Below, piece by piece: positions 51,082-64,000 of a stretch of 64,000 nt of DNA. The DNA lies in the NCBI GenBank assembly GCA_021773035.1, contig JAJFKU010000052.1:8040-72039 (forward strand), in the 5' to 3' direction. The translations under genes and the position numbers were made by a program. Below the pieces are notes generated by a model, which was not told where the DNA came from, searched no databases, and was given only the letters and a program-made list of their open reading frames with translations. Position 1 is the first letter of the stretch, and the number at the start of each line of letters is the position of its first letter. This DNA is from Woeseiaceae bacterium. Its GTDB lineage: Bacteria > Pseudomonadota > Gammaproteobacteria > Steroidobacterales > Woeseiaceae.

Positions 51082-53142
51082 CTAGAAGTGATAGCTGATG
51101 CCGACCTTGAGTGTTCGCTCAGCACCGTAAAGCCGTGTCCCAACGGCGATATCGGAACCCATGGCGCGATTGATACCGGCCAGATGGTCCTGATACGTGG
51201 TATCGAACAGATTTTCGACATGGGCTTCGAGCTGAACCGAGGAGGCAGGCGACCAGGAAAACCCGAGGTTAAATATTTCGTATGCTTCGGTCTGCTGTTC
51301 TGCATTGAACGCAGAAACGTCTTTCTGGCTGGCATAGGCAACAAAGCGCGTGTTCAGCGACCAGGTATCGGCGTTGTAAACCAGGCCCAGGCTGCCGTTA
51401 AAGGGCGCAAGCCGGTAGAGGTTGTCCGAAACATCCGTGCGGCGTCCTCGCGAGTAGTTCGCGATACCGTCCAGCTTCAGTCGCTCGGAAATGTCGAAAG
51501 TCCAGGCCACGTCCACGCCCCAGATGTCGGCATCGGTGTTTGCGAACTGTAGTGCGGGCTGCCCGGTCATCATGGTCGAAACCATGTTGGCCATTGCATT
51601 AGTGGCGGGAACGCCCTGTATGAAACCATCGATCCGTTTGAAATAGATCTGCGGCGCCAGGTTGAAGCGCCCGATCGAGGCAAACAAGCCGATGTTCACT
51701 TCGTGCGCCTTCTCGGAATCGAGCGTCAGGTCGCCGATGTACGTCCGTCCATCGGCCAGCCCGCCGGTTGCCTGCAGTGGTAACCATAAATACAGCTCCT
51801 GGTAAGACGGTGCTCGTGATTTTTGTCCGAGTTCGAATTGCCATTCAAGTTCACTGCTGGTCCGGTAACTGTATTTGACGACAGCATCGATATCGTCGAA
51901 ATCCAGGTCGCGTGTGGCGGCGTTGAACATCGTGGCCAGGTTCTGCGGCCCGGCATTCATCATTCCGCTTACCCCGACATCGCCGGCGTCGCTGCTTACG
52001 CGTTTGAACCTGAGCCCGAGTTCGATATCTGACGATTGCCCCTCGAGTGTCCACTCGCCAAATGCGCTGATGAGGTCTCTCTGCACGTCCGAGAAGTTGA
52101 TGACCCGGAACGCTGCATTGTTGGGATTGGTGATGATCGAATCATGTTCGGCGAAAACCCCGTCAAGACCGACCTTCAGCGATGACGACTCCAGATCGAC
52201 GGTCCCGGCCAGGGTCAGTGTTTCACCGCTGCCCGTGGCTCTATTCTGGCGATACATCATCGGCATGGGTGCCTGGCGATAGGAGAAGTTGTCCATTAGA
52301 TGGTCAACGTCGTTTACCGAGAGGCGACCCTCGATTGTCAGCGCTGGCGATAGCGCGTACTGGAAATGGCCACCGGCGAGGTCGGTCTCGATGAAAAGAA
52401 TGTCCATCGGTAGCGCCGGGGTTCCGGAATCCACCGTGTCCAGCCTTCCTGCGAAAACTACGAGATGATTGTCACCGGCGGCATACGCGTAGCTCAAATC
52501 GTAGCGCTTCCGGTCAACTCCCGAAGGGCGGATAGTTCCGGCTGGCGTCTCTATATCGGAACCGGAATCCACCTCCGAGATTGCAGAGATACGATGGGAC
52601 TGATTGGACAAAGTCAGCCGGCCGGCGGACGTCCCGACGTCTCCATTCTGCGAATAGCGTGAGCCGAGAAACCCGGACAGCTCGAAGTCGCTAGCAGCGA
52701 ATTCGCCACGCGCCATGCTGGTTCTGATGTGACCGCCGATGGACTCAGCGGCCGAAGTGACGCTCGCAATGCCGCGCTCGACTTGCAGCGATTCCGTAAT
52801 CATCGGTGAGACGTAGCTAATCGGCGCGTCCATCGCGTTCGGACCACCGGAGACGATTGCGTGGTTGTCGATCGTGATTGCTACACGGTCGCCAAACATG
52901 CCGCGGTATTGAGCGATACCGGTAATCGGACCGTTGCTATTGACGTTTGCGCCGGGCAGGTTCTTGAGCGCAGCCGCGGTGTCGACGAGTAACTCTTGCT
53001 CGACGTTGATATCTAGTGCGCGCGTCGTGACGGAATGTCCGGCGACGATGATTTCGTCAATCGTTTCCTTCGATTCTTCGGCCGACACGCCGATAGGGCA
53101 GACAACGAGCAGCGCGACCGCTGCTTTCATTGGCAGTTTCAT
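51082..53142 (-). CDS. TonB-dependent receptor (metal, possibly copper, by context)
   Basis: Signal peptide, plug (DEIIVAGHSVTTRALD), barrel and terminal ...GISYHF. Lies downstream of a DUF2946-like His-rich gene. Confidence 0.88.
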   Translation of the reverse strand: MKLPMKAAVALLVVCPIGVSAEESKETIDEIIVAGHSVTTRALDINVEQELLVDTAAALKNLPGANVNSNGPITGIAQYRGMFGDRVAITIDNHAIVSGGPNAMDAPISYVSPMITESLQVERGIASVTSAAESIGGHIRTSMARGEFAASDFELSGFLGSRYSQNGDVGTSAGRLTLSNQSHRISAISEVDSGSDIETPAGTIRPSGVDRKRYDLSYAYAAGDNHLVVFAGRLDTVDSGTPALPMDILFIETDLAGGHFQYALSPALTIEGRLSVNDVDHLMDNFSYRQAPMPMMYRQNRATGSGETLTLAGTVDLESSSLKVGLDGVFAEHDSIITNPNNAAFRVINFSDVQRDLISAFGEWTLEGQSSDIELGLRFKRVSSDAGDVGVSGMMNAGPQNLATMFNAATRDLDFDDIDAVVKYSYRTSSELEWQFELGQKSRAPSYQELYLWLPLQATGGLADGRTYIGDLTLDSEKAHEVNIGLFASIGRFNLAPQIYFKRIDGFIQGVPATNAMANMVSTMMTGQPALQFANTDADIWGVDVAWTFDISERLKLDGIANYSRGRRTDVSDNLYRLAPFNGSLGLVYNADTWSLNTRFVAYASQKDVSAFNAEQQTEAYEIFNLGFSWSPASSVQLEAHVENLFDTTYQDHLAGINRAMGSDIAVGTRLYGAERTLKVGISYHF

Positions 53143-53210
53143 TATTGGATCTCCTGAACAAACAGTATGCGGTGCAGCAGGCGCTGCACCTGTCTTTGTT
53201 TAACGTCCGT

Positions 53211-53612
53211 TCAGGCAGGCGGGGCGCGGGATCGATAGGCGGATGGGACGGTGCCGGGTGTTGCTACGACAATGGGGAGTATGGGTTGCTGAGTTATTGC
53301 TGTTGCGCTGACGATGCCGTCACCGTCATCGGTGGGCATTGCGGAAAACAGCAGATGACCGAACTGGCACAGGTCGGCTCCGGCCGCAGCTTGCAAACTG
53401 TCGCCGTCGTTATGGTGGTGATGATGCTCGTGGGCTGAACTGTCGGCGCCCGGCAATACGTATCCCGGCGGCAGCTGGTCCGGACATAGCTCGAACAACA
53501 GTCCGCTGCCGGCACTGGCCGGCATGTAGCCAAGCGGTGTTACGGCACGCAGTGCCAGCCCAAACAACAGGGTTGGCAACAGCAGGTATCTGTAGACAGG
53601 CCGTAACATCAC
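53211..53612 (-). CDS. DUF2946-like His-rich small secreted/membrane protein
   Basis: N-terminal TM/signal, LFELCPDQ..., a HEHHHHHNDGD run and LCQFGHLL. DUF2946 proteins typically precede TonB-dependent copper receptors. Confidence 0.65.
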   Translation of the reverse strand: MMLRPVYRYLLLPTLLFGLALRAVTPLGYMPASAGSGLLFELCPDQLPPGYVLPGADSSAHEHHHHHNDGDSLQAAAGADLCQFGHLLFSAMPTDDGDGIVSATAITQQPILPIVVATPGTVPSAYRSRAPPA

Positions 53613-54309: not shown

Positions 54310-56759
54310 AAGAACACCTGGTAGCCGAGGTTGATGAAATGGGATTCACGATCCAGATCGTTCCCCTGTATTTCCTGCTGTGAAAACTGTTTTCCCGTTT
54401 CGAGGTCTATGCGGAATTTCTGGCTACGACGGTATTGTAGGCGAAAACCTGGTGTGTAAAGCCATTCATAGCCTGAGTTGCCCAACCGTTCCCGGCGATC
54501 AACGCGCAGTCTCGGGTTGATACGCCAGGATTTCCCGAAAGGAAAGCGGCTGTCGAAAGACAGCGATGCTACTCGAGAGGTATCAGAGTTTGAATAACGC
54601 ACGGTAATGATCGACACATCGCCTTCTTTCAAAAGGCTGCTGGCAACGATGCTGCCCGAGTAGTAGTTGTAGGAAGTTGCCGGAGTATCGAGCACGCCAC
54701 CCGATGCCGGCGTGCCGTCCGTCGTCGATTGGGTCATGTCTGCATTGATCTGCAATTTGGGTGACAGGGGGTAGGACATGCCTATCGTATAAGATGTCGA
54801 TTGTGCAGTACGATCCTGGCCGAGCTGCCGCAGTTCATGCTCGCTGAAAATCGCTGTGAGTTCTGTGAACGACACGACCGGTTGACCGATCATCGCGTTC
54901 CCCGCGCTCAAGAACGGGTTTCCGCGCCGGTCGACAAGCGCATGAATGGAAAGGCGGGAATCGAAACGCCAGCTGCCTTGCAGGAAAGCACTGGCAAGTT
55001 CGCCAAAACCCAGATCGTAGTCAATTTGCGCCCAGAGGTTGCGATTCGTACCAAAGTAACGCAGTTCGCCGCCGACGGCCCGGCGGTCCTGAATACCCTC
55101 AATATTCTGCTCTATAAAGAACAAACCGAGATCGAGTCCGTCGAAAACAGGCCCGTAGTTCAGACTGGCACCGTAAAAAGTTCGTTCGTCATCGATGCTG
55201 TCCGACGACGAGTACGCCGGCTTTCCCGCGACAGCGTTGACGAGGATTCTCTCATTGAGCTCATAGCCGAGGTTCAATCCGTCGAAGCGGCCGAGGACAC
55301 CGCCAGTGTTCCGGGACTGGCGCCCGATTCGACCGCGCAGTCCGGTTACGGCGTCTGCCAGATCGGCGTACGCATACGAGATTCGTGTGCTATTGCCGGA
55401 ACTGGTCGTACTATCCAGAAAATCATTGCGATAACCGGCAGACAGCCGACTGCTGAAGTCAAAGCGGTCACCGCGCCGGCGGGCGTCGAAATTAATGTCG
55501 GAATACAATGCCGATTGACTGATGATTTCTTGCTGATCGTTCTGCTGGTTCGCATCCCGTCGGTAGTATTGCGAGAAGAATGTCTGGATTCGCCAGTCGC
55601 TGCGCTGAGCAGCTCGAGAATTCCCGGCAGCCGGAGATGAGCCCGTCGCACCGCTTTGTCTGCCGCTGGAGAGCAGCGCGGCGAGTCGCTGGCGGACCCG
55701 GTTCGCACCTTCGCTATCGGGGTAGAGTGAGAGATAGCGCTCATACTCTGCTTTTGCGTGTGCGGTTTGCCCTTTCTTTTCTCTCGCCAGGGCCAGGTAT
55801 TCCTGAGCTTCCGCCTGGCGTGGATGCTCCGGTAACTGCAGAATCTTCGTGTAGATTTGTACGGCCCTGGATGTGTCTCCGGCGATCATCGTCTTACGGG
55901 CATCCTCCATCAAAACGTCGATCCTCGAACCCGCGCTGACTCCCTCAGCGACGTCTTCAGTCTGCGTCGTCTGCTTCGACGTAGCGATAGTGGTTGAAAC
56001 TGCGTCGCCGTCCTCCCGGTCAATCCAGGCGCCGGGGAACGTCGCCGTCAGGGCGGCCAGCGCTCTATTGGCAGCGTCGGCCGAAGCGAAGTCGCCGAAC
56101 CGCAGCCGATACCAGGCAATCCCGTCAATGACCACCTCCTTGTAGAAAAGGCGTTGTCCGTCCTCAAGTTGCAGGTCGAGGGCATCAGCCAGCGTCGGCG
56201 TGCGTCGCAACGATGCCAGATTAATCACCCAGTTAACCGTCGCTATCGGCGCTTGCAGAACCTGCCGATGAAGGATGTCCGATTCACGCCCGGTTTCGGC
56301 CTTGCCGGACGACTGCCCGGCCTCCGGCCTGACGTGTACAACAAGTTCAAATGACAGCGCCGCCATATCGATGTCAAATTCGACTGGCTCGCTGAATATC
56401 AGCGTCAATACGGAGCCCGCGGCCGATTCACCATCGTATTCAAGTTCGAGCAGATGAGCGTTGTCCGAATTGAACGGTCGTAGCCGGGTTTTCGATCTGG
56501 CGACGGTTGGCGACACGCCGTTGCAGATGCTGCTCGGTTCGAGGAAAACGCGCAGGCGATCGCCGCCGCCGAGTGGTTCATGTCGCAGGTATTGTGTTTT
56601 GCAGTTGAACCGAACGTGGATGTCGGCATCAGCAGGTTCGCCCGACTCCGCTGTCGAGACTCGCGAACTGCCGATAAAACCGGGGGCGGCAATGGCGAGC
56701 GACGCCATCTGGATGAGTAGCGCACCACCAAACCACAGAGCAAACCGCCGAGCTACCAT
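54306..56759 (-). CDS. Outer-membrane protein: signal peptide + SPOR-like domain + TPR + about 430-aa C-terminal beta-barrel
   Basis: Signal (LWFGGALLIQMASLAIAAPG), SPOR-like stretch (WVINLASLRR...IAWYRLRFGDFASADAANRALAALTATFPGAWI) and TPR (AVQIYTKILQL...EYERYLSLYPDS). The C-terminal half has alternating amphipathic strands and ends ...NLGYQVFF. Confidence 0.8.
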   Translation of the reverse strand: MVARRFALWFGGALLIQMASLAIAAPGFIGSSRVSTAESGEPADADIHVRFNCKTQYLRHEPLGGGDRLRVFLEPSSICNGVSPTVARSKTRLRPFNSDNAHLLELEYDGESAAGSVLTLIFSEPVEFDIDMAALSFELVVHVRPEAGQSSGKAETGRESDILHRQVLQAPIATVNWVINLASLRRTPTLADALDLQLEDGQRLFYKEVVIDGIAWYRLRFGDFASADAANRALAALTATFPGAWIDREDGDAVSTTIATSKQTTQTEDVAEGVSAGSRIDVLMEDARKTMIAGDTSRAVQIYTKILQLPEHPRQAEAQEYLALAREKKGQTAHAKAEYERYLSLYPDSEGANRVRQRLAALLSSGRQSGATGSSPAAGNSRAAQRSDWRIQTFFSQYYRRDANQQNDQQEIISQSALYSDINFDARRRGDRFDFSSRLSAGYRNDFLDSTTSSGNSTRISYAYADLADAVTGLRGRIGRQSRNTGGVLGRFDGLNLGYELNERILVNAVAGKPAYSSSDSIDDERTFYGASLNYGPVFDGLDLGLFFIEQNIEGIQDRRAVGGELRYFGTNRNLWAQIDYDLGFGELASAFLQGSWRFDSRLSIHALVDRRGNPFLSAGNAMIGQPVVSFTELTAIFSEHELRQLGQDRTAQSTSYTIGMSYPLSPKLQINADMTQSTTDGTPASGGVLDTPATSYNYYSGSIVASSLLKEGDVSIITVRYSNSDTSRVASLSFDSRFPFGKSWRINPRLRVDRRERLGNSGYEWLYTPGFRLQYRRSQKFRIDLETGKQFSQQEIQGNDLDRESHFINLGYQVFF

Positions 56760-59536
56760 TCTTTGTCGCTGATTCTATGGCAGCCGCTGCTGGCACAGTT
56801 CAGATCGTTTGCCAGACCGTTGTGATCGTCCTTGTCAGCTTTGTAATCTCTCGCATGGCATCCGGCACAGGTTGGCTGATAACCCGGCGAGGACCAGCTT
56901 ACGACTTCCGTGTTGCTGCGATGGCAGTCCGTACAGGCAAAGTTCCCGCGATGATCGAGCGGTTCGTAGGTGAGCCCGCTATGACTGTAGTCGGCGGGTG
57001 TCCAGGCGTTGGGACTGTGACATAAACCACAGTCCTGGCTGGTGTTGAAGTGTCCCGGGTTCTGTCCCGTCGCCTGGATTCCATTGTGGCAGGATGAGCA
57101 GGAGCCGAGCACCTGGTTGTGGTCGACGGCCACAACGGGAATCCAGACGGTCGGACTGTGACAGTCTTCGCAGACGTTCGTCGTTTGCACGTGAGCCGGT
57201 CCTTTGCCGGTCGCGTCGCTGCCGTTGTGGCAGCTTGAACAGTTGTCCACGATATTCGTATGGTCGAAATTAGCCGGTGTCCACGCGACTGTCGTGTGAC
57301 AGTCGTCGCAGTTGTTGCCGCTCGCGATATGTGTCGGATGTTTGCCGATGGCAAGCGTGCCGTTGTGGCAGGAGCTACAGGCGCCGAGAACCTGCGTGTG
57401 GTCAACCGTGTAGGGTGGAATCCAGGTATTCGGTGTATGACAGTCTTCGCAGACGGTGCTCGTCTGAATGTGATTCGGGTTTTTGCCCGTTGCATCGGTG
57501 CCGTTGTGGCAATTCGCGCAGTTGCCGGTGATATTGATGTGATCGAAATTGGCGGGCAGCCAGGCTGTCGTTGCATGGCAATCGTCACAGTTATTGCCGC
57601 TGCTAATGTGGGTTGGATTCTTACCGGTAGCCTCGACGCCATTGTGGCAGCTGACGCAATTACCCGTGATGCCGACATGGTCGAAATTGGCCGGCAGCCA
57701 GGCAACGGTGGAGTGGCAGTCATCACAGCTGTTGCCGCTCGTGATGTGCGCCGGATGTTTGCCGGTCGCGCTTACGCCATCGTGGCAGGAGCCGCAGGAG
57801 CCAAGCACCTGGGTATGGTCGACGTTGATAGCGGGCGCCCAGGTATTGCTGCTGTGGCAGTCTTCGCAGACATTGCTGGTCTGGATGTGTGCCGGGTTTT
57901 TGCCGGTGGCGTCGACACCGTTGTGACAGCTGACGCAATTGCCGGTGATGCCAACGTGGTCGAAGGTCGCCGGCCGCCAGGCAACAGTGGAATGGCAGTC
58001 GTCGCAGGTATTCGGGCTTGTGATATGTGTAGGATGCTTGCCGATTGCGGTAATGCCATCGTGACAGGAGTTACAGGTGCCGATGACCTGTGTGTGATCG
58101 ACGGTAAAGGCCGGCGCAAATACGTTCGTGTTGTGACAGTCTTCGCAGACATTACTGGTCTGGATATGTGCCGGGTTTTTGCCGGTCACGTCGACACCGT
58201 TGTGGCAGTCGACACAGTTCCCGGTGATGTTGAGGTGATCGAAGTTCGCCGGTAACCAGCCAAGGGTTGAATGGCAGTCATCGCAGGTGTCGCCGCTGTT
58301 GATATGATCCGGCGTCTTGCCGCTTGCGGTCAGGCCATCGTGGCAGGAGCCGCAGGCACCGATGACCTGCGTGTGATCGACCGTATCTGCCGGCACGAAG
58401 ACGTTGGTGTTGTGGCAGTCCTCGCAGGTAGCCGTCGTCTGAATATGAGAGGGGTTCTTGCCGGTCACGTCGACACCGTTGTGACAATTGACACAATTGC
58501 CGGTGATTTCCGAATGGTTGAAATTCGCGGGCAGCCAGGCAAGCGTCGAGTGACAATCGTCACAATTCGTGCCACTCGGGATATGTGTGGGGTTCTTGCC
58601 TTCAGCGGTGATTCCGTCATGGCAGGAGCCGCAACTTCCGAGGGCCTGCGTATGATCAACGGTGAGTGCTGGCGCCCATACATTCGGGTTATGACAATCC
58701 TCGCAAACATCGGTAGTCAAAACGTGTGTCGGGTTCTTTCCAGTGGCTTCAACGCCGTTGTGGCAGCTGACACAGTTTCCCGTGATATTCACATGATCGA
58801 AGTTGGCGGGCAGCCAGCCGACTGTCGAGTGGCAATCGTCGCACTGATCACCGCTGCTGAGATGGGTTGCATGTTTACCGGCCGCGGATACGCCGTTGTG
58901 GCAGGATCCGCAGGTTCCCAGTACCTGCGTATGGTCAACGGTGAACGCCGGTTCAAAAGTGATCGTACTATGACAGTCTTCGCAAACATTCGTCGTTTGC
59001 ACGTGCGATGGACTCTTGCCGACTGCAGTCAGCCCATTGTGGCAGCTCACGCAATTGCCGCTGATACCCGCATGGTCGAATGTAGCCGGTGTCCATCCGC
59101 TCGTGGTATGGCAGTCGTCGCACTGATCGGTTGACGAAATGTGGGCCGGTGTTTTGCCGCTTGCCTGAACCCCGTTGTGGCAGCTGACGCAGTTGCCGGT
59201 CAGCGACGAATGATCGACATAGGTGACAATGCTCCAGGCTGCGGTGATATGACAGTCCGAACATTCTCCAACCGTCGAGACGTGATTCGATGGTTTCGAC
59301 GATGCGCGTACCAGGCTGCTCTGAGAGTGACAACTGGTGCAGGTCGAATTGGTGGGGCCAAACGTGCCGCTGACATGGCAGCCCTCGCAAGTGACGTTGG
59401 TATGCGCGCCATCTAGAACGAAGCCGGTACTGAAATGGTCGAAGCTGGTTTGTGAGAGCGCGTCAGTGGATACGAACAGTCCAGACAACATGATGGCCAG
59501 GATTAGAGCGCCGCTACCTAAAACAGTGGTCTTCAT
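56753..59536 (-). CDS. Giant secreted multiheme c-type cytochrome (37 CXXCH + 1 CX4CH)
   Basis: Sec signal (MKTTVLGSGALILAIMLSGLFVSTDALSQ). I counted 37 CXXCH plus a terminal CASSGCH. From motif 5 to motif 35 the spacers are 18 or 19 residues, each carrying one conserved His (FDH/VDH or GK.P.H). Confidence 0.9.
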   Translation of the reverse strand: MKTTVLGSGALILAIMLSGLFVSTDALSQTSFDHFSTGFVLDGAHTNVTCEGCHVSGTFGPTNSTCTSCHSQSSLVRASSKPSNHVSTVGECSDCHITAAWSIVTYVDHSSLTGNCVSCHNGVQASGKTPAHISSTDQCDDCHTTSGWTPATFDHAGISGNCVSCHNGLTAVGKSPSHVQTTNVCEDCHSTITFEPAFTVDHTQVLGTCGSCHNGVSAAGKHATHLSSGDQCDDCHSTVGWLPANFDHVNITGNCVSCHNGVEATGKNPTHVLTTDVCEDCHNPNVWAPALTVDHTQALGSCGSCHDGITAEGKNPTHIPSGTNCDDCHSTLAWLPANFNHSEITGNCVNCHNGVDVTGKNPSHIQTTATCEDCHNTNVFVPADTVDHTQVIGACGSCHDGLTASGKTPDHINSGDTCDDCHSTLGWLPANFDHLNITGNCVDCHNGVDVTGKNPAHIQTSNVCEDCHNTNVFAPAFTVDHTQVIGTCNSCHDGITAIGKHPTHITSPNTCDDCHSTVAWRPATFDHVGITGNCVSCHNGVDATGKNPAHIQTSNVCEDCHSSNTWAPAINVDHTQVLGSCGSCHDGVSATGKHPAHITSGNSCDDCHSTVAWLPANFDHVGITGNCVSCHNGVEATGKNPTHISSGNNCDDCHATTAWLPANFDHINITGNCANCHNGTDATGKNPNHIQTSTVCEDCHTPNTWIPPYTVDHTQVLGACSSCHNGTLAIGKHPTHIASGNNCDDCHTTVAWTPANFDHTNIVDNCSSCHNGSDATGKGPAHVQTTNVCEDCHSPTVWIPVVAVDHNQVLGSCSSCHNGIQATGQNPGHFNTSQDCGLCHSPNAWTPADYSHSGLTYEPLDHRGNFACTDCHRSNTEVVSWSSPGYQPTCAGCHARDYKADKDDHNGLANDLNCASSGCHRISDKEW
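57030..59120. repeat. Diverged tandem coding repeat, about 279-bp (93-aa, 4-heme) period, about 7.5 copies
   Basis: Repeating protein unit CDDCH-x18-CV(S/N/D)CH-x18-CEDCH-x19-C(G/N/S)SCH-x18. Nucleotide copies appear roughly 75-85% identical by eye, e.g. around 57640-57720 versus 57910-57990. Confidence 0.8.
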
Positions 59537-61104
59537 TGCAGCGTTCTCACTTCTCTGAACGATTCGGCTGTGTGGCAGCGGCCACAGTCGGAGCCGAATT
59601 CATCGTCATGCACATCATCAGCGCGATGACAGCTCCCACAGCTACCGTCGATGGTCTTCATCCGGTCCAGTGAGCTGCGGTGACAGTCACTGCAGGCGAC
59701 CGTCGTATGGGCACCTTGCAGCGGGAAAGCGGTTTGCTCCTTATGATCGAAAATCCACAGCTCCCATCCCACCGGGTTGTGGCAGGAGCCGCAGCGCTGC
59801 GGGAAGTTGCCGCGGTGTGGGTCGTCATCGATATGGCAGGACGTGCAGTCACTCTCGGCGTTGGCGAAAGCCTGCGTTTCATGGCAGTCCTCGCATTCGT
59901 TGCCACGATGTGCGCCAAGTAGCGGAAACCGCGTGAGATCGTGATCGAAGAAGATCGGGTCCTGCCAGGTTACTTCCGTGTGGCAGCTCTCACACAGGGT
60001 ACCCAGCGTGCCCTCGTGAACATCATCGTCGATATGGCAGGACTCACAGCCAGTCGTTAACGTTACTTCGAAGATGGGTTCGACGTGGCAGTCGTTACAC
60101 GCCACCTCCGCATGTGCACCAAGAATCTCATAGTCCGTGTCCTGGTTGTGGTCGAAGCCCGGCTCTGACCAGGCATCGTTGTTGTGACAGGTATCGCATT
60201 GATCGCCGTTATGCCCGCCATGGTCGTCGTCCTCGAGGTGACAGGAGACGCAGGCCATGTCCATAACGTCCTCGAACGGCGTTTCCGAATGACAGTCATT
60301 GCAGGAAAGCTCGGCATGCCTGCCGAGCAGTTCGAAATCGGTATCGCGGGCGTGATCGAAACTCGAGTCGTGCCAGTCACCGGGATTGTGGCAGTTTCCG
60401 CAATCATTGCCGCTGCGACCGTTATGGGCATCGTCTTCGGCATGGCAGTCGAAGCAGGCGCTCGCCGGAGCCGGCAGAAATGTCCTGTCTTCATGACAGT
60501 CCAGGCATGCGGCCTCGCGGTGTTGTCCGAGCAGGGGGTAGTCCGTCGTGTCATGGTCGAATTCTGCGTCCAGCCACTCAACCGGCCGGTGGCAGGTAGC
60601 GCAATCAGTCGCCATTGTGTCCTGATGTGGCTCGTCCTCGCTATGGCAATCGACGCAATCCGAGGCGACCGCGCGGTGCTTTTCTCCGCGGTCATGACAA
60701 TCACCGCAGTCGGCATCTTTGTGAGCACCGAGAAGTTCAAAGTCAGTAAAGGCGTGATCGAACGAATCTTCGTCGAGAATGACGACGATCGCGTCTCGCC
60801 CCTCGTGTTCCGTATGACATGACGAACACTGTTCAATGCTTGCCTCGGTATGCAGGCCATGAAAACCGAAGCTGTCGTTGACGTCTGCAGCGACATCCTC
60901 ATGGCAGTCAAGGCACAGCTCGCGTTGCGCCTGTTTGTCGAACATTTTGTGGCACGAAGAACATTCGTTTTCCAGCTCTGCGTGTCCGACAATGACCTTG
61001 CCGGGCATGACCAGGGTTTCAATATCCTGAGCGGATGCCTTTTCTGATGTCATGAACGTCGTCATTAGGATTAATCCAAACGATATATATCGCCACAAAA
61101 TCAT
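59533..61104 (-). CDS. Secreted 21-heme c-type cytochrome built from seven c7-like triheme units
   Basis: Signal (FGLILMTTFMTSEKASAQD). I counted 21 CXXCH. They repeat as a triplet unit C..CH-x11/12-C..CH-x13-C..CH-x26/27, with FDH..T.F.L.G.H between units (doubled-CXXCH / cytochrome c7 style). Confidence 0.9.
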   Translation of the reverse strand: MILWRYISFGLILMTTFMTSEKASAQDIETLVMPGKVIVGHAELENECSSCHKMFDKQAQRELCLDCHEDVAADVNDSFGFHGLHTEASIEQCSSCHTEHEGRDAIVVILDEDSFDHAFTDFELLGAHKDADCGDCHDRGEKHRAVASDCVDCHSEDEPHQDTMATDCATCHRPVEWLDAEFDHDTTDYPLLGQHREAACLDCHEDRTFLPAPASACFDCHAEDDAHNGRSGNDCGNCHNPGDWHDSSFDHARDTDFELLGRHAELSCNDCHSETPFEDVMDMACVSCHLEDDDHGGHNGDQCDTCHNNDAWSEPGFDHNQDTDYEILGAHAEVACNDCHVEPIFEVTLTTGCESCHIDDDVHEGTLGTLCESCHTEVTWQDPIFFDHDLTRFPLLGAHRGNECEDCHETQAFANAESDCTSCHIDDDPHRGNFPQRCGSCHNPVGWELWIFDHKEQTAFPLQGAHTTVACSDCHRSSLDRMKTIDGSCGSCHRADDVHDDEFGSDCGRCHTAESFREVRTLQ

Positions 61105-61122: not shown

Positions 61123-62028
61123 TTAGTACATGTGCACTGCGAGCACGTGAAAGAGGGCGGATATAACAAGAAGAATAAACAGTGGCATGTGAAAAATGTG
61201 CCACAGCGAAAACAGGCGTTCGTAAAACGCCAGCTGCGCGACCTGCCGCATTAGCCCGGTTTGTTGGGCTGCGTAAGCATTCGCAGTTTTTCGGAGGTGT
61301 CTGGTATTGCTCATTACCACTTCGGATACGGCTGCTTTTTCACGCAGCTCCTTGTTAATCTGGACGTATAGGCGCAGCCGGACGATGTAGTACCTGAACG
61401 TCCAGGACAGGCTGTGCCGCAGGCTGATCGAGCGTGTAATTTCGTCGCCCGTCAACCTGGACGAAACCTTATGTAACTCGTGGATGAAACCCGGCATGAT
61501 CGCCGCCAGCCCACGGCTGTTGCCAAGGGCGTCGGCTATTTCTTCGCGCAGCTCTTCTATGCTGGCTCGCTTACCGTACAGACCACGGTGGATTCGGGTG
61601 TAGAAGTAGCGACCGACGATGCCGCTTATTGTGACGGCCAGCATACTGTACAAGGCAACCTTGCTGTTCAGCGCGTCGACACTGAAATTACAATGATAGA
61701 GAATCAGTGCCGGACCCACGAGTCCGAAAATCATGTGGATGCGAAACCAGTGTTTGACCAGGCCAAGTCGCCGCAGTATCGATGACTTCTTTCCGGCTGG
61801 ATAAAGAAGCAGAAGCAACATCAGCGAGCCACCAACGATTCCGAGCCAGTAACCGACGCCCTCTTCGGGATTGACCAGCTCGGTTTCGCGCAGGAACCAG
61901 CCGGCAACGACGGTGATGGCCAATAACAGGTAGCCATAGACACCTCGCCCTGACCGTTTACGAGATACTTTGCCAGCATCAACTTTCGCTTGCGTCGCAG
62001 CTACTTCGCTTACCGTCGTATCGATCAT
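61123..62028 (-). CDS. His-rich 5-TM inner-membrane protein (candidate b-type cytochrome / quinol-interacting module)
   Basis: TM helices YLLLAITVVAGWFL, WLGIVGGSLMLLLLLY, HWFRIHMIFGLVGPALILYH, LYSMLAVTISGIVGRYFY and LFSLWHIFHMPLFILLVISALFHVLAVH, with a soluble loop of about 110 aa. Conserved-looking intramembrane His pairs are present. Confidence 0.7.
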   Translation of the reverse strand: MIDTTVSEVAATQAKVDAGKVSRKRSGRGVYGYLLLAITVVAGWFLRETELVNPEEGVGYWLGIVGGSLMLLLLLYPAGKKSSILRRLGLVKHWFRIHMIFGLVGPALILYHCNFSVDALNSKVALYSMLAVTISGIVGRYFYTRIHRGLYGKRASIEELREEIADALGNSRGLAAIMPGFIHELHKVSSRLTGDEITRSISLRHSLSWTFRYYIVRLRLYVQINKELREKAAVSEVVMSNTRHLRKTANAYAAQQTGLMRQVAQLAFYERLFSLWHIFHMPLFILLVISALFHVLAVHMY

Positions 62029-62825
62029 TTACTGTATTCGTCTTGTTCTATTATCAGCGTCAGATGTTGGTTCTCGGCGACTCTGACGACCTCCGACTTC
62101 GCCTCGAGCCCCTGCAGGGTGGCAGTGGCGTCCCCGGATCGCGTGATTCGTGCCGTAACGATGACTTCCTCGACGTCGGAGAGCTTCATGTCGGCAGTCA
62201 TTGCCTGGCTATCATTCAGCGAGAAGTCGATCGGCAGCTCGGCTGCAGGTCGTTTCAGAACGGCTACGGGCATTGGCGATCCGTTGACGGCACGGGCAAA
62301 GATAAAAACCGTATCGGTCGGATTAACGAAACTCCTGGCTTCCGGCGCCAGGCTGACGTTACCGGATATCTGCGCGGCGGACGTGCCTGTCACGTTTTCC
62401 CCAGAGTTCAGCGCCGCCAACTCCGCATCAACCTGTCCCAGCGCGGCTGCTTTTGCATAGGCGTCGACGGCTTCGTCGAGTCGTCCGAGATGTCGATAGG
62501 AGCGCGCCAGCAGTAGCCAGCTGCCGCCATCGTTCGGATCGTCCTGCAGGCGTGCAGCCAGGCCGTCGACCATGCTCGCGACAGAGGCGATCTTTGTGTT
62601 GTTCGGTGCATTCGACGCGGTGTTTGACGGCAGGTGGGGTGGCTCGCCGGCCGTGCCTGAGCCTGGCGAGCCGAGTTTCATGTAGATCCCGAAGGCGACT
62701 ACCGGCAGCGATACGCAGACCACGAGCAACAAGGGCTTGCGATTCTCCTTAAGCAACGGCATTGCAATAAAGCCCAGCGCCACCGCTGCCATTACCGCTA
62801 CTAAAACCCAAAACAATCCGGCCAT
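62025..62825 (-). CDS. ccmI: CcmI/CycH-like c-type cytochrome biogenesis (apocytochrome chaperone) protein
   Basis: Two N-terminal TMs (FWVLVAVMAAVALGFIAMPLL; LLLVVCVSLPVVAFGIY) and TPR (GGSWLLLARSYRHLGRLDEAVDAYAKAAAL). The C-terminal region (VFIFARAVNGSPMPVAVLKRPAAELPIDFSLNDSQAM...VTARITRSGDA) is typical of CcmI. Confidence 0.65.
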   Translation of the reverse strand: MAGLFWVLVAVMAAVALGFIAMPLLKENRKPLLLVVCVSLPVVAFGIYMKLGSPGSGTAGEPPHLPSNTASNAPNNTKIASVASMVDGLAARLQDDPNDGGSWLLLARSYRHLGRLDEAVDAYAKAAALGQVDAELAALNSGENVTGTSAAQISGNVSLAPEARSFVNPTDTVFIFARAVNGSPMPVAVLKRPAAELPIDFSLNDSQAMTADMKLSDVEEVIVTARITRSGDATATLQGLEAKSEVVRVAENQHLTLIIEQDEYSK

Positions 62826-63357: not shown

Positions 63358-64000
63358 ATGTTCGACAGTGTTGTTAATTTTCTACTCTATGCGGTGCCGA
63401 TTCTGTTGATCCTGGCCTGGTATATCCGGCGTCATTCGAGTACTGAAACGAGCAGTCTGGAAACCCTGAAAACGGCTAAGGAAGAGGGCCTGATGGAGCC
63501 CCCGACTTTGCACCCCGAGATCGATCATCAACTCTGTATTGGCTGCACAAATTGTGTCGCGGCCTGCCCGGAACAAGGCGCGCATCAGGTGCTGGGGATG
63601 ATCAGAAAGAAGGCCAACCTGGTTGGGCCGACCAACTGCATTGGCCACGGCGCCTGTAAAACGGTCTGTCCGGTCAATGCGATCACCCTGGTTTTCGGAA
63701 CGGCGCAACGCGGTGTTGATATTCCGCGGGTCGATCCGAATTTCCAGACCAATGTGCCGGGCATTTTTATCGCCGGAGAACTAGGGGGCATGGGTCTGAT
63801 CAGGAATGCGGTGGAACAAGGTCGCCAGGCGATGCAGTCGATAAAGGAACTGGTGCGCACTCCGCATCGAAACGAACTGGACGTAGTCATCATAGGTGCC
63901 GGCCCGGCGGGTTTTTCCGCGACCTTGTCTGCAACAGAAGCGAAGCTTCGACATACGACGGTTGAGCAGGAAGAGTTGGGAGGAACCGTTGCCCACTTTC
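63358..64000 (+). CDS. Membrane-anchored 4Fe-4S ferredoxin domain fused to an FAD/NAD(P)-binding (thioredoxin-reductase-like) oxidoreductase, 3' end off window
   Basis: My own translation: MFDSVVNFLLYAVPILLILAWYI..., two Cys clusters (CIGCTNCVAACP and CIGHGACKTVCP), then DVVIIGAGPAGFSA dinucleotide fold. The frame is open to the window end and is absent from the ORF track because it has no stop. Confidence 0.8.
   Translation, partial: MFDSVVNFLLYAVPILLILAWYIRRHSSTETSSLETLKTAKEEGLMEPPTLHPEIDHQLCIGCTNCVAACPEQGAHQVLGMIRKKANLVGPTNCIGHGACKTVCPVNAITLVFGTAQRGVDIPRVDPNFQTNVPGIFIAGELGGMGLIRNAVEQGRQAMQSIKELVRTPHRNELDVVIIGAGPAGFSATLSATEAKLRHTTVEQEELGGTVAHF

Follow-up and report, generated by a model that had tools for sequence, protein, structure and literature searches.

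A probable PCC3-type electron conduit with a highly regular 38-heme-motif cytochrome in a Woeseiaceae-like gammaproteobacterium

The PCC3 conduit and the related gene cluster

The PCC3 type of porin-cytochrome conduit was described by He, Barco, Emerson & Roden in 2017 (PMC5566968) as a set of four components, an inner-membrane protein (IMP), a periplasmic multiheme cytochrome (pMHC), an extracellular multiheme cytochrome (eMHC) and a barrel outer-membrane protein (OMP). In that description (PMC5566968) the IMP has about 300 aa, with two WX3HX13H motifs in TM3 and TM5 and an SGXXG motif in TM4, while the pMHC carries a median of 21 hemes (21, 24 or 27 in Gallionellaceae); the examples include Sideroxydans lithotrophicus ES-1 (Slit_0868 and Slit_1448) and Leptothrix cholodnii SP-6, and for the eMHC Amphritea atlantica (63 hemes) and Agromonas oligotrophica S58 (85 hemes). 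The PCC3 eMHC is heme-dense (22-39 aa per heme, median 26), and its repeats, its low ratio of amino acids to heme and the hypothesis of a wire were all put forward in 2017, together with the proposal that PCC3 is fed from the quinone pool (PMC5566968). The published assignment of the long cytochrome to the outside of the cell is a prediction. Both PCC3 clusters of Sideroxydans ES-1 are down-regulated on Fe(II), and IMP, pMHC and porin were detected in its proteome, the extracellular MHC being absent from the detections.

We analysed a stretch of 64,000 nucleotides (hereafter the window) from a Woeseiaceae bacterium of marine sediment, in which a translationally coupled operon, running on the minus strand from 62825 to 53734 with gene overlaps of 4-7 bp, encodes a CcmI-like protein, an IMP, a 21-heme pMHC, a long multiheme cytochrome, an OMP and a lipoprotein, in this order (Table 1). 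The long cytochrome gene corresponds to the eMHC of PCC3, and its product is probably the long outer cytochrome of a PCC3-type conduit in a Woeseiaceae-like gammaproteobacterium. This assignment is based on the operon layout, on the size and the motifs of the IMP, on the number of hemes in the pMHC (exactly 21), on the density, repeats and composition of the eMHC (38 motifs, 24.4 aa per heme, 93-aa repeat), on the beta-barrel of the OMP as seen in the predicted structure, and on homology, since all four proteins match those of a Gallionellaceae MAG (L083) and of Paucibacter (L001) with the order kept. The same layout was found in 80 related loci, with those of Woeseiaceae being the closest, and the gene order is kept in 50 of the 52 loci with enough flank. 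The original prediction had recognized a genuine multiheme cytochrome, which stands, but had missed this cluster context, already described in 2017.

The motifs of the IMP (W94x3H98x13H112, S135GIVG139 and W276x3H280x13H294) are invariant in a 4-sequence alignment and make up the PCC3 IMP signature, pointing to a putative di-heme b protein; a ferric-reductase-like nature is a proposal from these motifs. No Pfam match of the IMP was obtained even at E 10, the profile search of PDB gave no meaningful match, and the homology search returned mainly sequences about 64-76% identical to the IMP of this locus. The pMHC is composed of seven triheme c7-like modules with spacers of 12/13/28, and 21 hemes are present in 60 of its 66 complete homologues. 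The OMP consists of a beta-sandwich (residues 29-145), a SPOR-like domain (177-260), a TPR domain (276-364) and a predicted 22-strand beta-barrel (389-816); its AlphaFold2 model (pLDDT 80.4) shows all 22 strands over residues 389-816 and gave 339 PDB matches at E<1e-3 in Foldseek, the top 50 listed being all outer-membrane barrels.

The CcmI-like gene is the first of the operon, and the lipoprotein gene lies 3' of OMP in 35 of the 52 loci with enough downstream flank. The divergent neighbour encodes a product of 439 aa with an N-terminal TM helix, a 2x[4Fe-4S] domain and an FAD/NAD(P)-binding domain; it adjoins 52 of 56 PCC3 clusters and is more conserved than every other component. Promoter and terminator scans gave no signal above the shuffled background, the Rfam scan of the window gave no matches, and elsewhere in the window, where RND efflux, fatty-acid and redox enzymes and regulators are encoded, nothing connected with electron transfer or secretion was found.

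Table 1. Coordinates of the PCC3-type cluster and of the segments of its eMHC gene (positions in the window)
Feature	Position	Strand	Remarks
Lipoprotein, 191 aa	53734..54309	-	lipobox LSGC; no family match
OMP, 817 aa	54306..56759	-	signal peptide; overlaps eMHC stop by 7 bp
eMHC, 927-aa multiheme cytochrome c	56753..59536	-	37 CXXCH + 1 CX4CH; ATG start
eMHC C-terminal cap	56756..57031	-	3 CXXCH (spacers 18/27/17) and the conserved atypical CX4CH
eMHC terminal CX4CH (CASSGCH)	56777-56797	-	
eMHC periodic array, residues 139-835	57032..59122	-	15 two-heme half-units = 7.5 four-heme modules
eMHC deletion junction	57608..57631	-	in-frame; 47 aa (one B half-unit, 2 hemes) missing relative to 39-heme orthologues
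eMHC N-terminal cap	59123..59452	-	4 CXXCH, spacers 11/21/19; kept in all Woeseiaceae-type orthologues
eMHC Sec-type signal peptide, residues 1-28 (...DALS/QT)	59453..59536	-	read from sequence; cleavage site inferred
pMHC, 523-aa cytochrome	59533..61104	-	21 CXXCH; stop overlaps eMHC start by 4 bp
IMP, 301-aa inner-membrane protein	61123..62028	-	
CcmI/CycH-like cytochrome c maturation chaperone paralogue	62025..62825	-	TPR + Ig_CycH; overlaps IMP start by 4 bp
Divergent Fe-S/FAD gene	63358..64000	+	5' part, cut by window end

Heme motifs, repeats and copy number of the long cytochrome

As a test of the heme number originally predicted for the eMHC, the motifs were counted by regular expression, and the count of 37 CXXCH plus one CX4CH (CASSGCH, residues 914-920) agreed with the prediction; CX3CH and CXXCK were absent in this count. 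After shuffling with the composition preserved, a mean of 0.53 CXXCH and a maximum of 5 in 2000 sequences were obtained. Each spacer of the periodic part carries the predicted His, exactly 6 residues ahead of the next Cys, and four spacers contain a second one (GKH..H). In total 42 non-motif His are available for 38 hemes, in agreement with the stoichiometry claimed for bis-His ligation, and both Met residues of the protein lie within the signal peptide; the mature protein is therefore Met-free, leaving His-His ligation as the sole option. The columns of Cys, His and spacer His are conserved at 90% or more across 63 homologues. The statement that heme-attachment Cys make up about 4% of the residues turned out to be wrong, because Cys accounts for 76 of 927 residues (8.2%) and the value of 4.1% is the density of motifs. 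The protein is indeed ultra-dense in heme, but it is not exceptional for its family, in view of the range known for PCC3.

The eMHC is Sec-exported and strongly acidic, without a lipobox Cys (Cys first occurs at residue 50), and its only conserved features are the 38 heme-attachment motifs and at least 38 distal His; the commonest residues besides Cys and His are T, S, G, N, D, V and A. Family profiles place it in the cytochrome c7-like multiheme superfamily, as judged from PF14522 (Cytochrome_C7; 193.3 bits over 16 stretches, gathering cut-off 24.8) and TIGR04257 (triheme domain, 'nanowire_3heme'; 80.2 bits, cut-off 40). Two other families were tried and rejected: the DmsE/MtrA family (TIGR03508), for which the score of 140.5 bits, spread over 7 partial stretches, stays below the cut-off of 192.2 and the hemes number 38, not 10, and the OmcA/MtrC lipoproteins (TIGR03507), for which 23 bits were obtained against a cut-off of 209.3, with the lipobox absent and no Cys before residue 50.

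When PDB was searched with the eMHC by sequence and by profile, only marginal matches were obtained, with no solved relative among them: a c7-like chain of alternative complex III at E 3e-4, followed by MtrC, GSU1996, MtrA and NrfH at E 0.004 or worse. The AlphaFold2 model, built from a 63-sequence alignment and without hemes, has almost no secondary structure (pLDDT 61.8, pTM 0.27), and Foldseek with this low-confidence model found no match below E = 3.6 in PDB. The model being of low confidence and heme-free, a linear geometry of the protein stays a proposal.

The spacers between heme motifs rotate as 18/18/18/19 from motif 5 (residue 139) to motif 35 (residue 836), confirming the rotation claimed for this segment, with a sole break of five consecutive 18s at motifs 25-29. 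A four-heme unit of 93 aa present in 7.5 copies had been proposed; the number of units is correct, but the smallest repeating element is a half-unit with two hemes and a length of 46 or 47 aa, which alternates between type A (CDDCH..CVSCH) and type B (CEDCH..CGSCH). The array is built of 8 A-type half-units of 46 aa and 7 B-type half-units of 47 aa, with identities of 61-83% between A units, 49-77% between B units and 38-55% between A and B. The 93-aa unit is therefore an A+B super-repeat, and the absence of one B half leaves the array at 7.5 units. At the DNA level, TRF detected periods of 279 nt (74-77% matches) and 138 nt (65%).

In order to examine the growth of the array, we compared the complete orthologues of Woeseiaceae type, and found that 27 of 29 fit a rule of 7+4n CXXCH (15, 19, 23, 27, 31, 39, 47 or 51), as expected from the predicted tandem growth of a four-heme module. 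Within these orthologues (range 15-51) the mode is 39 hemes; across the related loci the eMHC has 11 to 89 hemes, and relatives reach 129-131 CXXCH. The only length difference of this eMHC from the 39-heme orthologues (78% identity) is a single in-frame deletion of 47 aa, with its junction at residues ~636-643 inside the repeated ATGKNPTH motif. The gene thus reads as the 39-heme form minus one B unit, and the half-unit at motifs 25-26, for which unequal recombination had been suggested, is a real recombination scar. The end modules behave as positional orthologues while the interior modules are interchangeable, supporting, at the level of sequence comparison, a gain and loss of hemes through module copy number.

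Electron route, cellular location and alternative readings

A mechanism can be proposed in which the hemes of the eMHC would be attached by the Ccm system to form one continuous bis-His chain, of about 30-38 nm if the spacing of ~0.8-1 nm per heme is taken by analogy with MtrA. The periplasm would be bridged by the 21-heme pMHC (~17-21 nm), which would also reach into the barrel, and the 38-heme eMHC would extend the chain past the outer membrane. This would allow the cell to exchange electrons with insoluble or distant partners, such as Fe/Mn minerals, further redox-active particles and other cells. The length of the wire would change by unequal recombination between repeats, each step adding or removing two or, more often, four hemes. 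A pMHC fixed at 21 hemes beside an eMHC of 11-89 hemes is what would be expected if the pMHC bridges a gap of constant width and the eMHC reaches out into open space. The extracellular location of the eMHC and electron transfer across the envelope are predictions.

As a further proposal, possible but doubtful, the Woeseiaceae PCC3 would be a length-tunable extracellular heme wire made of a single polypeptide and fed by a split NOX-like module, not by the quinone pool. The reach of such a wire may be under genetic control, changing by two hemes at a time and differing between close relatives over a range of 15 to 51 hemes, and the split module may consist of the membrane-anchored cytoplasmic NAD(P)H/FAD/2x[4Fe-4S] protein and the di-heme-b IMP. 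If true, cytoplasmic pyridine nucleotides and extracellular solids would be connected by a route independent of quinones.

The main alternative to an exiting wire is that both cytochromes are periplasmic, the 38-heme eMHC serving as an electron store (capacitor), a role suggested by Hoover et al., or as a periplasmic buffer. It would agree with the export features of the eMHC, which has a Sec signal peptide only, without the lipobox of MtrC/OmcA or any recognizable export signal, with the absence of type II secretion genes from the window, and with the failure to detect the extracellular MHC in ES-1 proteomes. This location is nevertheless unlikely, in view of the pMHC of fixed size and periplasmic length and of the dedicated outer-membrane barrel in the cluster; an eMHC of 11-89 hemes, if linear, is also hard to fit into a gap of ~20-25 nm. 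For a protein extending beyond the outer membrane, the heme density together with the predicted site outside the cell could also indicate polymerization into a cytochrome filament similar to those of OmcS, OmcZ or OmcE. The PDB sequence and profile searches detected no similarity of the eMHC to any of these three, one eMHC chain contains enough His for its 38 hemes, and its length is set by the number of modules within the gene, making polymerization unnecessary; we regard such a filament as highly improbable. An MtrA/MtrC-type decaheme-family cytochrome (MtrCAB/MtoAB), the assignment given to sediment Woeseiaceae by iron-gene annotation pipelines, is hardly less improbable. The partial profile matches (TIGR03508 as above, and 66 bits for the Pfam MtrC/MtrF domain II/IV) and the mtrCAB reported in sediment Woeseiaceae MAGs by a 2025 study would speak for it, but the OMP barrel is not MtrB-like in the Foldseek ranking and the cluster carries the PCC3-specific IMP.

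To the possibility that the array arose by repeat collapse or expansion in assembly, or that the gene is a decaying pseudogene, we attach next to no weight. Tandem repeats are a common source of misassembly, the eMHC genes of several related MAG loci (L019, L032, L042, L074 and L080) are fragmented, and the exact 927-aa sequence gave no match in the protein collection. The repeats are, however, only 64-83% identical in DNA, so that reads can be placed uniquely, and an independent Logan assembly of SRR15505513 agrees at 100% identity over 13.3 kb, the whole eMHC gene included. A length difference of one exact in-frame half-unit also argues against an artefact, and decay is contradicted by the intact frame and by dN/dS of ~0.06 (pN 0.13-0.14, pS 0.72-0.81) against four orthologues. 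These sequence comparisons confirm the eMHC as a genuine, selected and ultra-dense multiheme cytochrome, not an assembly artefact.

Among the bacteria of marine sediments, Woeseiaceae have been described as one of the most abundant groups. Extracellular electron transfer in this family has so far been inferred from 'mtrCAB' annotations, and a complete and unusually regular PCC3 cluster is now placed in Woeseiaceae-type bacteria. Judging from the genome scans, PCC3 is widespread: a scan of 185,579 species genomes with the IMP profile identified 463 relatives, and 1,169 protein clusters are defined by the heme module. The eMHC lengths form a natural allelic series (15 to 51 hemes, plus half-unit variants) on a constant 21-heme partner, and both the conserved terminal CX3-4CH heme and the cluster's own CcmI-like chaperone offer experimental handles. 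The conserved Fe-S/FAD neighbour could alter the model of electron entry or exit at the inner membrane. With regard to protein engineering, loss of a di-heme unit in register is tolerated, as the array with its two-heme deletion shows.

Comparison with known multiheme systems

The cluster resembles MtrCAB/MtoAB of Shewanella and Sideroxydans in combining a periplasmic bis-His multiheme wire, an outer-membrane barrel and an outer cytochrome, and the eMHC has weak profile similarity to MtrA/DmsE and to MtrC domains. It differs in the heme numbers (38 and 21 here, 10 and 10 there), in the eMHC being no lipoprotein, in the predicted OMP barrel (22 strands preceded by SPOR and TPR domains; MtrB, with 26 strands, is wider), and in the inner-membrane partner, which is not a tetraheme protein of CymA/NapC type. 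GSU1996 of Geobacter sulfurreducens (PDB 3OV0/3OUE; 318 aa, 12 hemes, by our own calculation ~26.5 aa per heme) is likewise a single polypeptide of tandem small multiheme modules (c7-type in GSU1996), with weak profile matches to the eMHC (E 0.013-0.03) and a triheme periodicity in common with the pMHC. The eMHC is 3x longer, has modules of two or four hemes instead of three, belongs to an outer-membrane conduit, and must have all its hemes bis-His ligated because of the Met-free mature protein. With OmcS, OmcE and OmcZ it would share long-range electron transport along a continuous extracellular heme chain; these, however, are polymers of one subunit each, with 4-8 hemes at 30-70 aa per heme, whereas the length of the eMHC lies within one gene.

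The closest likeness is to published PCC3, with which the eMHC shares a Thr/Ser/Gly/Ala-rich, low-complexity and internally repeated sequence. The present cluster stands apart in its Woeseiaceae-type host, for which no link to PCC3 was found in the literature searched, in the unusual regularity of the Woeseiaceae subfamily (7+4n hemes, strict 18/18/18/19 spacing), in the half-unit deletion of this eMHC, and in the CcmI-like, lipoprotein and divergent Fe-S/FAD genes, which lie outside the published description. What these comparisons would add to the known PCC3 is the 7+4n heme rule with its half-unit deletion, and the Fe-S/FAD gene that flanks nearly every cluster.

Heme motifs and integrity of the eMHC gene

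The eMHC gene, encoding the predicted extracellular multiheme cytochrome, was found by regular-expression count to carry 37 CXXCH motifs and a single CX4CH at its terminus (CASSGCH, residues 914-920), in full agreement with the original prediction for this 927-codon ORF, while neither CX3CH nor CXXCK was present in the window eMHC. In 2000 trials with shuffled eMHC composition, the number of CXXCH was 0.53 on average and 5 at maximum. The predicted regular spacing with one His per spacer was confirmed for motifs 5 to 35, in which the spacer lengths rotate as 18, 18, 18 and 19 and the spacer His is located exactly 6 residues N-terminal to the following Cys, but the content of Cys, proposed to be about 4%, was 8.2% of all residues. 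The protein contains 42 non-motif His versus 38 hemes; both of its two Met are within the signal peptide (Sec type, without lipobox), leaving His/His as the only ligation open to the hemes. eMHC is an acidic protein of 94 kDa (Asp plus Glu 85 versus Lys plus Arg 25), the heme load would add about 23 kDa, and c7-type profiles match it above the cut-offs. Long ORFs (275-331 aa) in other frames and on the opposite strand also cross the repeat array (window positions 56899-59134); these are by-products of the periodic GC-rich repeat sequence and not genes.

As a test of the possibility that the repeat array is an artefact of assembly, the two alternating two-heme half-units of the array, A and B, were compared at the DNA level. 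Like half-units share 64-83% identity, a divergence too great for repeat collapse, and an independent Logan contig (run SRR15505513) matches the window at 100% identity over 13,278 bp, with the same 927-aa product encoded in it, indicating that the array is not an artefact. Against four orthologues, the non-synonymous difference was 0.13-0.14 and the synonymous difference, near saturation in this comparison, 0.72-0.81 (dN/dS about 0.06), and the columns of Cys, His and spacer His are at least 90% conserved among 63 homologues. The exact eMHC sequence was not found in a collection of 15 billion proteins, nor did the first homology search return a self match, but the neighbouring 817-aa predicted barrel protein (OMP) and 301-aa inner-membrane protein (IMP) do occur in it (NCBI and Logan); a stop codon in the reference or a filter against repetitive proteins may account for this absence. 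At five related MAG loci (L019, L032, L042, L074 and L080), eMHC, and sometimes IMP or the periplasmic partner cytochrome pMHC, is split into fragments of different frames, which could reflect sequencing or assembly errors in repeats or real pseudogenes.

A PCC3 operon and its conserved neighbours

The genes of the minus-strand operon overlap by 4-7 bp, except for a gap of 18 bp between the IMP and pMHC genes. The porin-cytochrome cluster PCC3 was described by He et al. [quoted passage not shown] Since the IMP motifs and the 21-heme cytochrome are the hallmarks of PCC3, the window operon was identified as PCC3. The PCC3 MHCs (22-39 aa per heme) were reported to be rich in Thr, Ser, Ala and Gly and to carry internal repeats, with a median of 34 hemes for the extracellular and 21 for the periplasmic MHC (He et al. 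2017); the window eMHC belongs to this already described kind, in which it is not extreme. Identity of eMHC as MtrA or MtrC was rejected, the family cut-offs being missed.

Features of the window operon and its divergent neighbour
Feature	Position	Strand	Remarks
CcmI/CycH-like protein	62025-62825	-	paralogue of a cytochrome c maturation chaperone; first operon gene; 4-bp overlap with IMP gene
IMP, 301-aa membrane protein	61123-62028	-	W-x3-H-x13-H twice; SGIVG
pMHC, 523-aa cytochrome	59533-61104	-	exactly 21 CXXCH; seven triheme modules (spacers 12/13/28)
eMHC ORF	56753-59536	-	ATG start; 927 codons
OMP, 817 aa	54306-56759	-	predicted barrel
Lipoprotein, 191 aa	53734-54309	-	lipobox LSGC
Fe-S/FAD protein gene, 5' part	63358-64000	+	cut by window end; full gene at related locus L084:2083-3402 (-)

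Using the IMP profile, 463 loci were detected in 185,579 species genomes, and one and the same gene order was observed in all of the best 80. The closest loci among these 80 are from Woeseiaceae MAGs (IMP identity 66-73%, eMHC up to 78%), and more distant loci are from Paucibacter, Steroidobacteraceae, Chromatiaceae, Gallionellaceae, Nitrospirales, Thermodesulfobacteriota and Omnitrophota. The closest Woeseiaceae MAGs also share the genes directly downstream (window positions 51082-53612, minus strand) for a DUF2946 protein rich in His (HEHHHHHNDGD) and a TonB-dependent receptor whose closest model is that of copper receptors; kept after the cluster only in these closest loci, this is probably a separate copper-uptake pair.

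Three conserved neighbours, the CcmI-like gene, the lipoprotein gene and the divergent Fe-S/FAD gene, are not in the published PCC3 cluster. The most striking is the Fe-S/FAD gene, which neither of the two main PCC3 papers describes as belonging to the cluster. Of 56 loci with enough flank, from several phyla, 52 carry it next to the IMP gene, mostly divergently (at about 0.2-2.4 kb in most carrying loci, further in a few). Its product of 439 aa combines a TM helix at the N-terminus with a 2x[4Fe-4S] domain and an FAD/NAD(P)-binding domain of the TrxR/YpdA-like type; full-length homologues share 53-81% identity across loci, and the protein is better conserved than IMP. This conserved position beside IMP suggests that a pair of NOX-like flavoprotein and di-heme-b protein, rather than quinones, may pass electrons into or out of the conduit, the Fe-S/FAD protein possibly being the cytoplasmic partner of IMP as the putative di-heme-b protein. 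Of 56 loci with enough upstream flank, 30 carry the CcmI-like gene upstream of IMP; the whole ccmABCDEFGHI operon abuts the cluster in Paucibacter (L001), and ccmFGHI does so at locus L003. The CcmI-like protein may serve giant apocytochromes, or the terminal CX3-4CH site, as a dedicated chaperone. The lipoprotein could be assigned to no family of Pfam or NCBIfam, even at E 10. Of 52 loci with enough downstream flank, 35 have its gene after that of OMP, and the lipoprotein is therefore likely a fifth or sixth conserved component.

Repeat units and variation of heme number

The array was originally described as a repeated four-heme unit, CDDCH/CVSCH/CEDCH/CGSCH. The corresponding period of 279 nt was indeed detected in eMHC DNA by TRF, together with one of 138 nt, but the basic repeat is the two-heme half-unit, which alternates between A (CDDCH...CVSCH, 46 aa) and B (CEDCH...CGSCH, 47 aa), with identities of 61-83% for A-A, 49-77% for B-B and 38-55% for A-B. 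Orthologues of the Woeseiaceae type share a common layout of an N-cap with four hemes (spacers 11/21/19), n copies of the A+B module, and a C-cap with three CXXCH (spacers 18/27/17) plus CX3CH or CX4CH. The number of CXXCH equals 7+4n in 27 of 29 complete genes of this type, with values of 15, 19, 23, 27, 31, 39 (14 loci), 47 and 51, strongly supporting the proposed growth by duplication of modules. End modules are positional orthologues across species and interior modules are interchangeable, indicating that the copy number changes in the array interior.

Aligned with three 39-heme orthologues (78% identity), the window eMHC differs in length only by a single missing B half-unit of 47 aa. The junction falls in ATGKNPTH, a sequence present at both ends of that segment in the related locus L015. 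The predicted origin of the half-unit by recombination was thus borne out: as judged from the sequence, the B half-unit was lost by deletion between direct repeats. Together with the 7+4n rule and the di-heme unit, this half-unit deletion gives a finer description of what was noted as 'sequence repeats' in 2017.

Among the candidates scored, more than 2,900 were homologues of eMHC at E<1e-10, many of them longer (up to 1,611 aa), and in 1.84 billion representatives the profile of the 93-aa module matched 1,169 clusters (50% identity) at E<=1e-10. The maximum quoted for PCC3 in 2017, 85 hemes, is exceeded by the 2,148-aa homologue from Omnitrophota (L053:12767-19213) with 89 CXXCH, and by three putative giants with the eMHC heme module (P0361, P0363 and P0463; 3,274-3,949 aa) with 120, 129 and 131 CXXCH in the gene models as in the database. 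With relatives carrying up to 131 CXXCH, the window eMHC is mid-sized for the family; its heme density (24.4 aa per heme), predicted to be comparable to or higher than that of characterised nanowire cytochromes, is typical of the Woeseiaceae orthologues (24.1-27.6) and not extreme in the family. In contrast to eMHC, which varies from 11 to 89 hemes between loci, pMHC is constant at 21 hemes in all but 6 of the 66 complete loci (60 of 66), which indirectly supports the published PCC3 topology with pMHC inside and eMHC outside: pMHC would have to fit the fixed distance of periplasm plus barrel, and eMHC would be free to vary in length because it would project outward.

The proposed conduit in comparison with known systems

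The reading of eMHC as a 'heme wire', published before as a hypothesis for PCC3, is plausible. The hemes would form a continuous bis-His chain along the protein, of about 30-38 nm if the rise per heme is like that of MtrA (about 100 Angstrom for 10 hemes, as quoted by He et al. 2017), and electrons would be exchanged with extracellular solids via the 21 hemes of pMHC and the barrel. The PCC3 MHCs were modelled by Hoover et al. as long and mostly linear. Our AlphaFold2 model of eMHC was of low confidence, and the PDB search for related solved structures gave only marginal matches (MtrC, MtrA, GSU1996 and NrfH). As to expression, the PCC3 genes were down-regulated on Fe(II) in Sideroxydans ES-1 and are expressed above average in Sideroxydans CL21; the PCC3 extracellular MHC was never detected in ES-1 proteomes, and its neighbours were.

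No link between PCC3 and Woeseiaceae was found in the literature searched. For Woeseiaceae MAGs from sediment, mtrA, mtrB and mtrC were reported in a comparative study in 2025 (PMC12175321). Since PCC3 cytochromes match the MtrA/DmsE profile below threshold (140 bits for eMHC versus the cut-off of 192), some of these mtr calls may be PCC3. The main value of the window locus lies in the natural series of eMHC lengths, the Woeseiaceae setting and the conserved flavoprotein neighbour.

In the AlphaFold2 model of OMP (pLDDT 80.4), the 22-strand barrel is preceded by a periplasmic beta-sandwich, a SPOR-like (peptidoglycan-binding) domain and TPR helices; a helical insert lies at residues 619-649. 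The best 50 of its 339 Foldseek matches were all outer-membrane barrels, among them the FimD usher, porins, AlgE, PelB and BcsC. In the predicted layout and the helical insert, OMP resembles the TPR-barrel exopolysaccharide exporters (BcsC, PelB and AlgE) more than MtrB.
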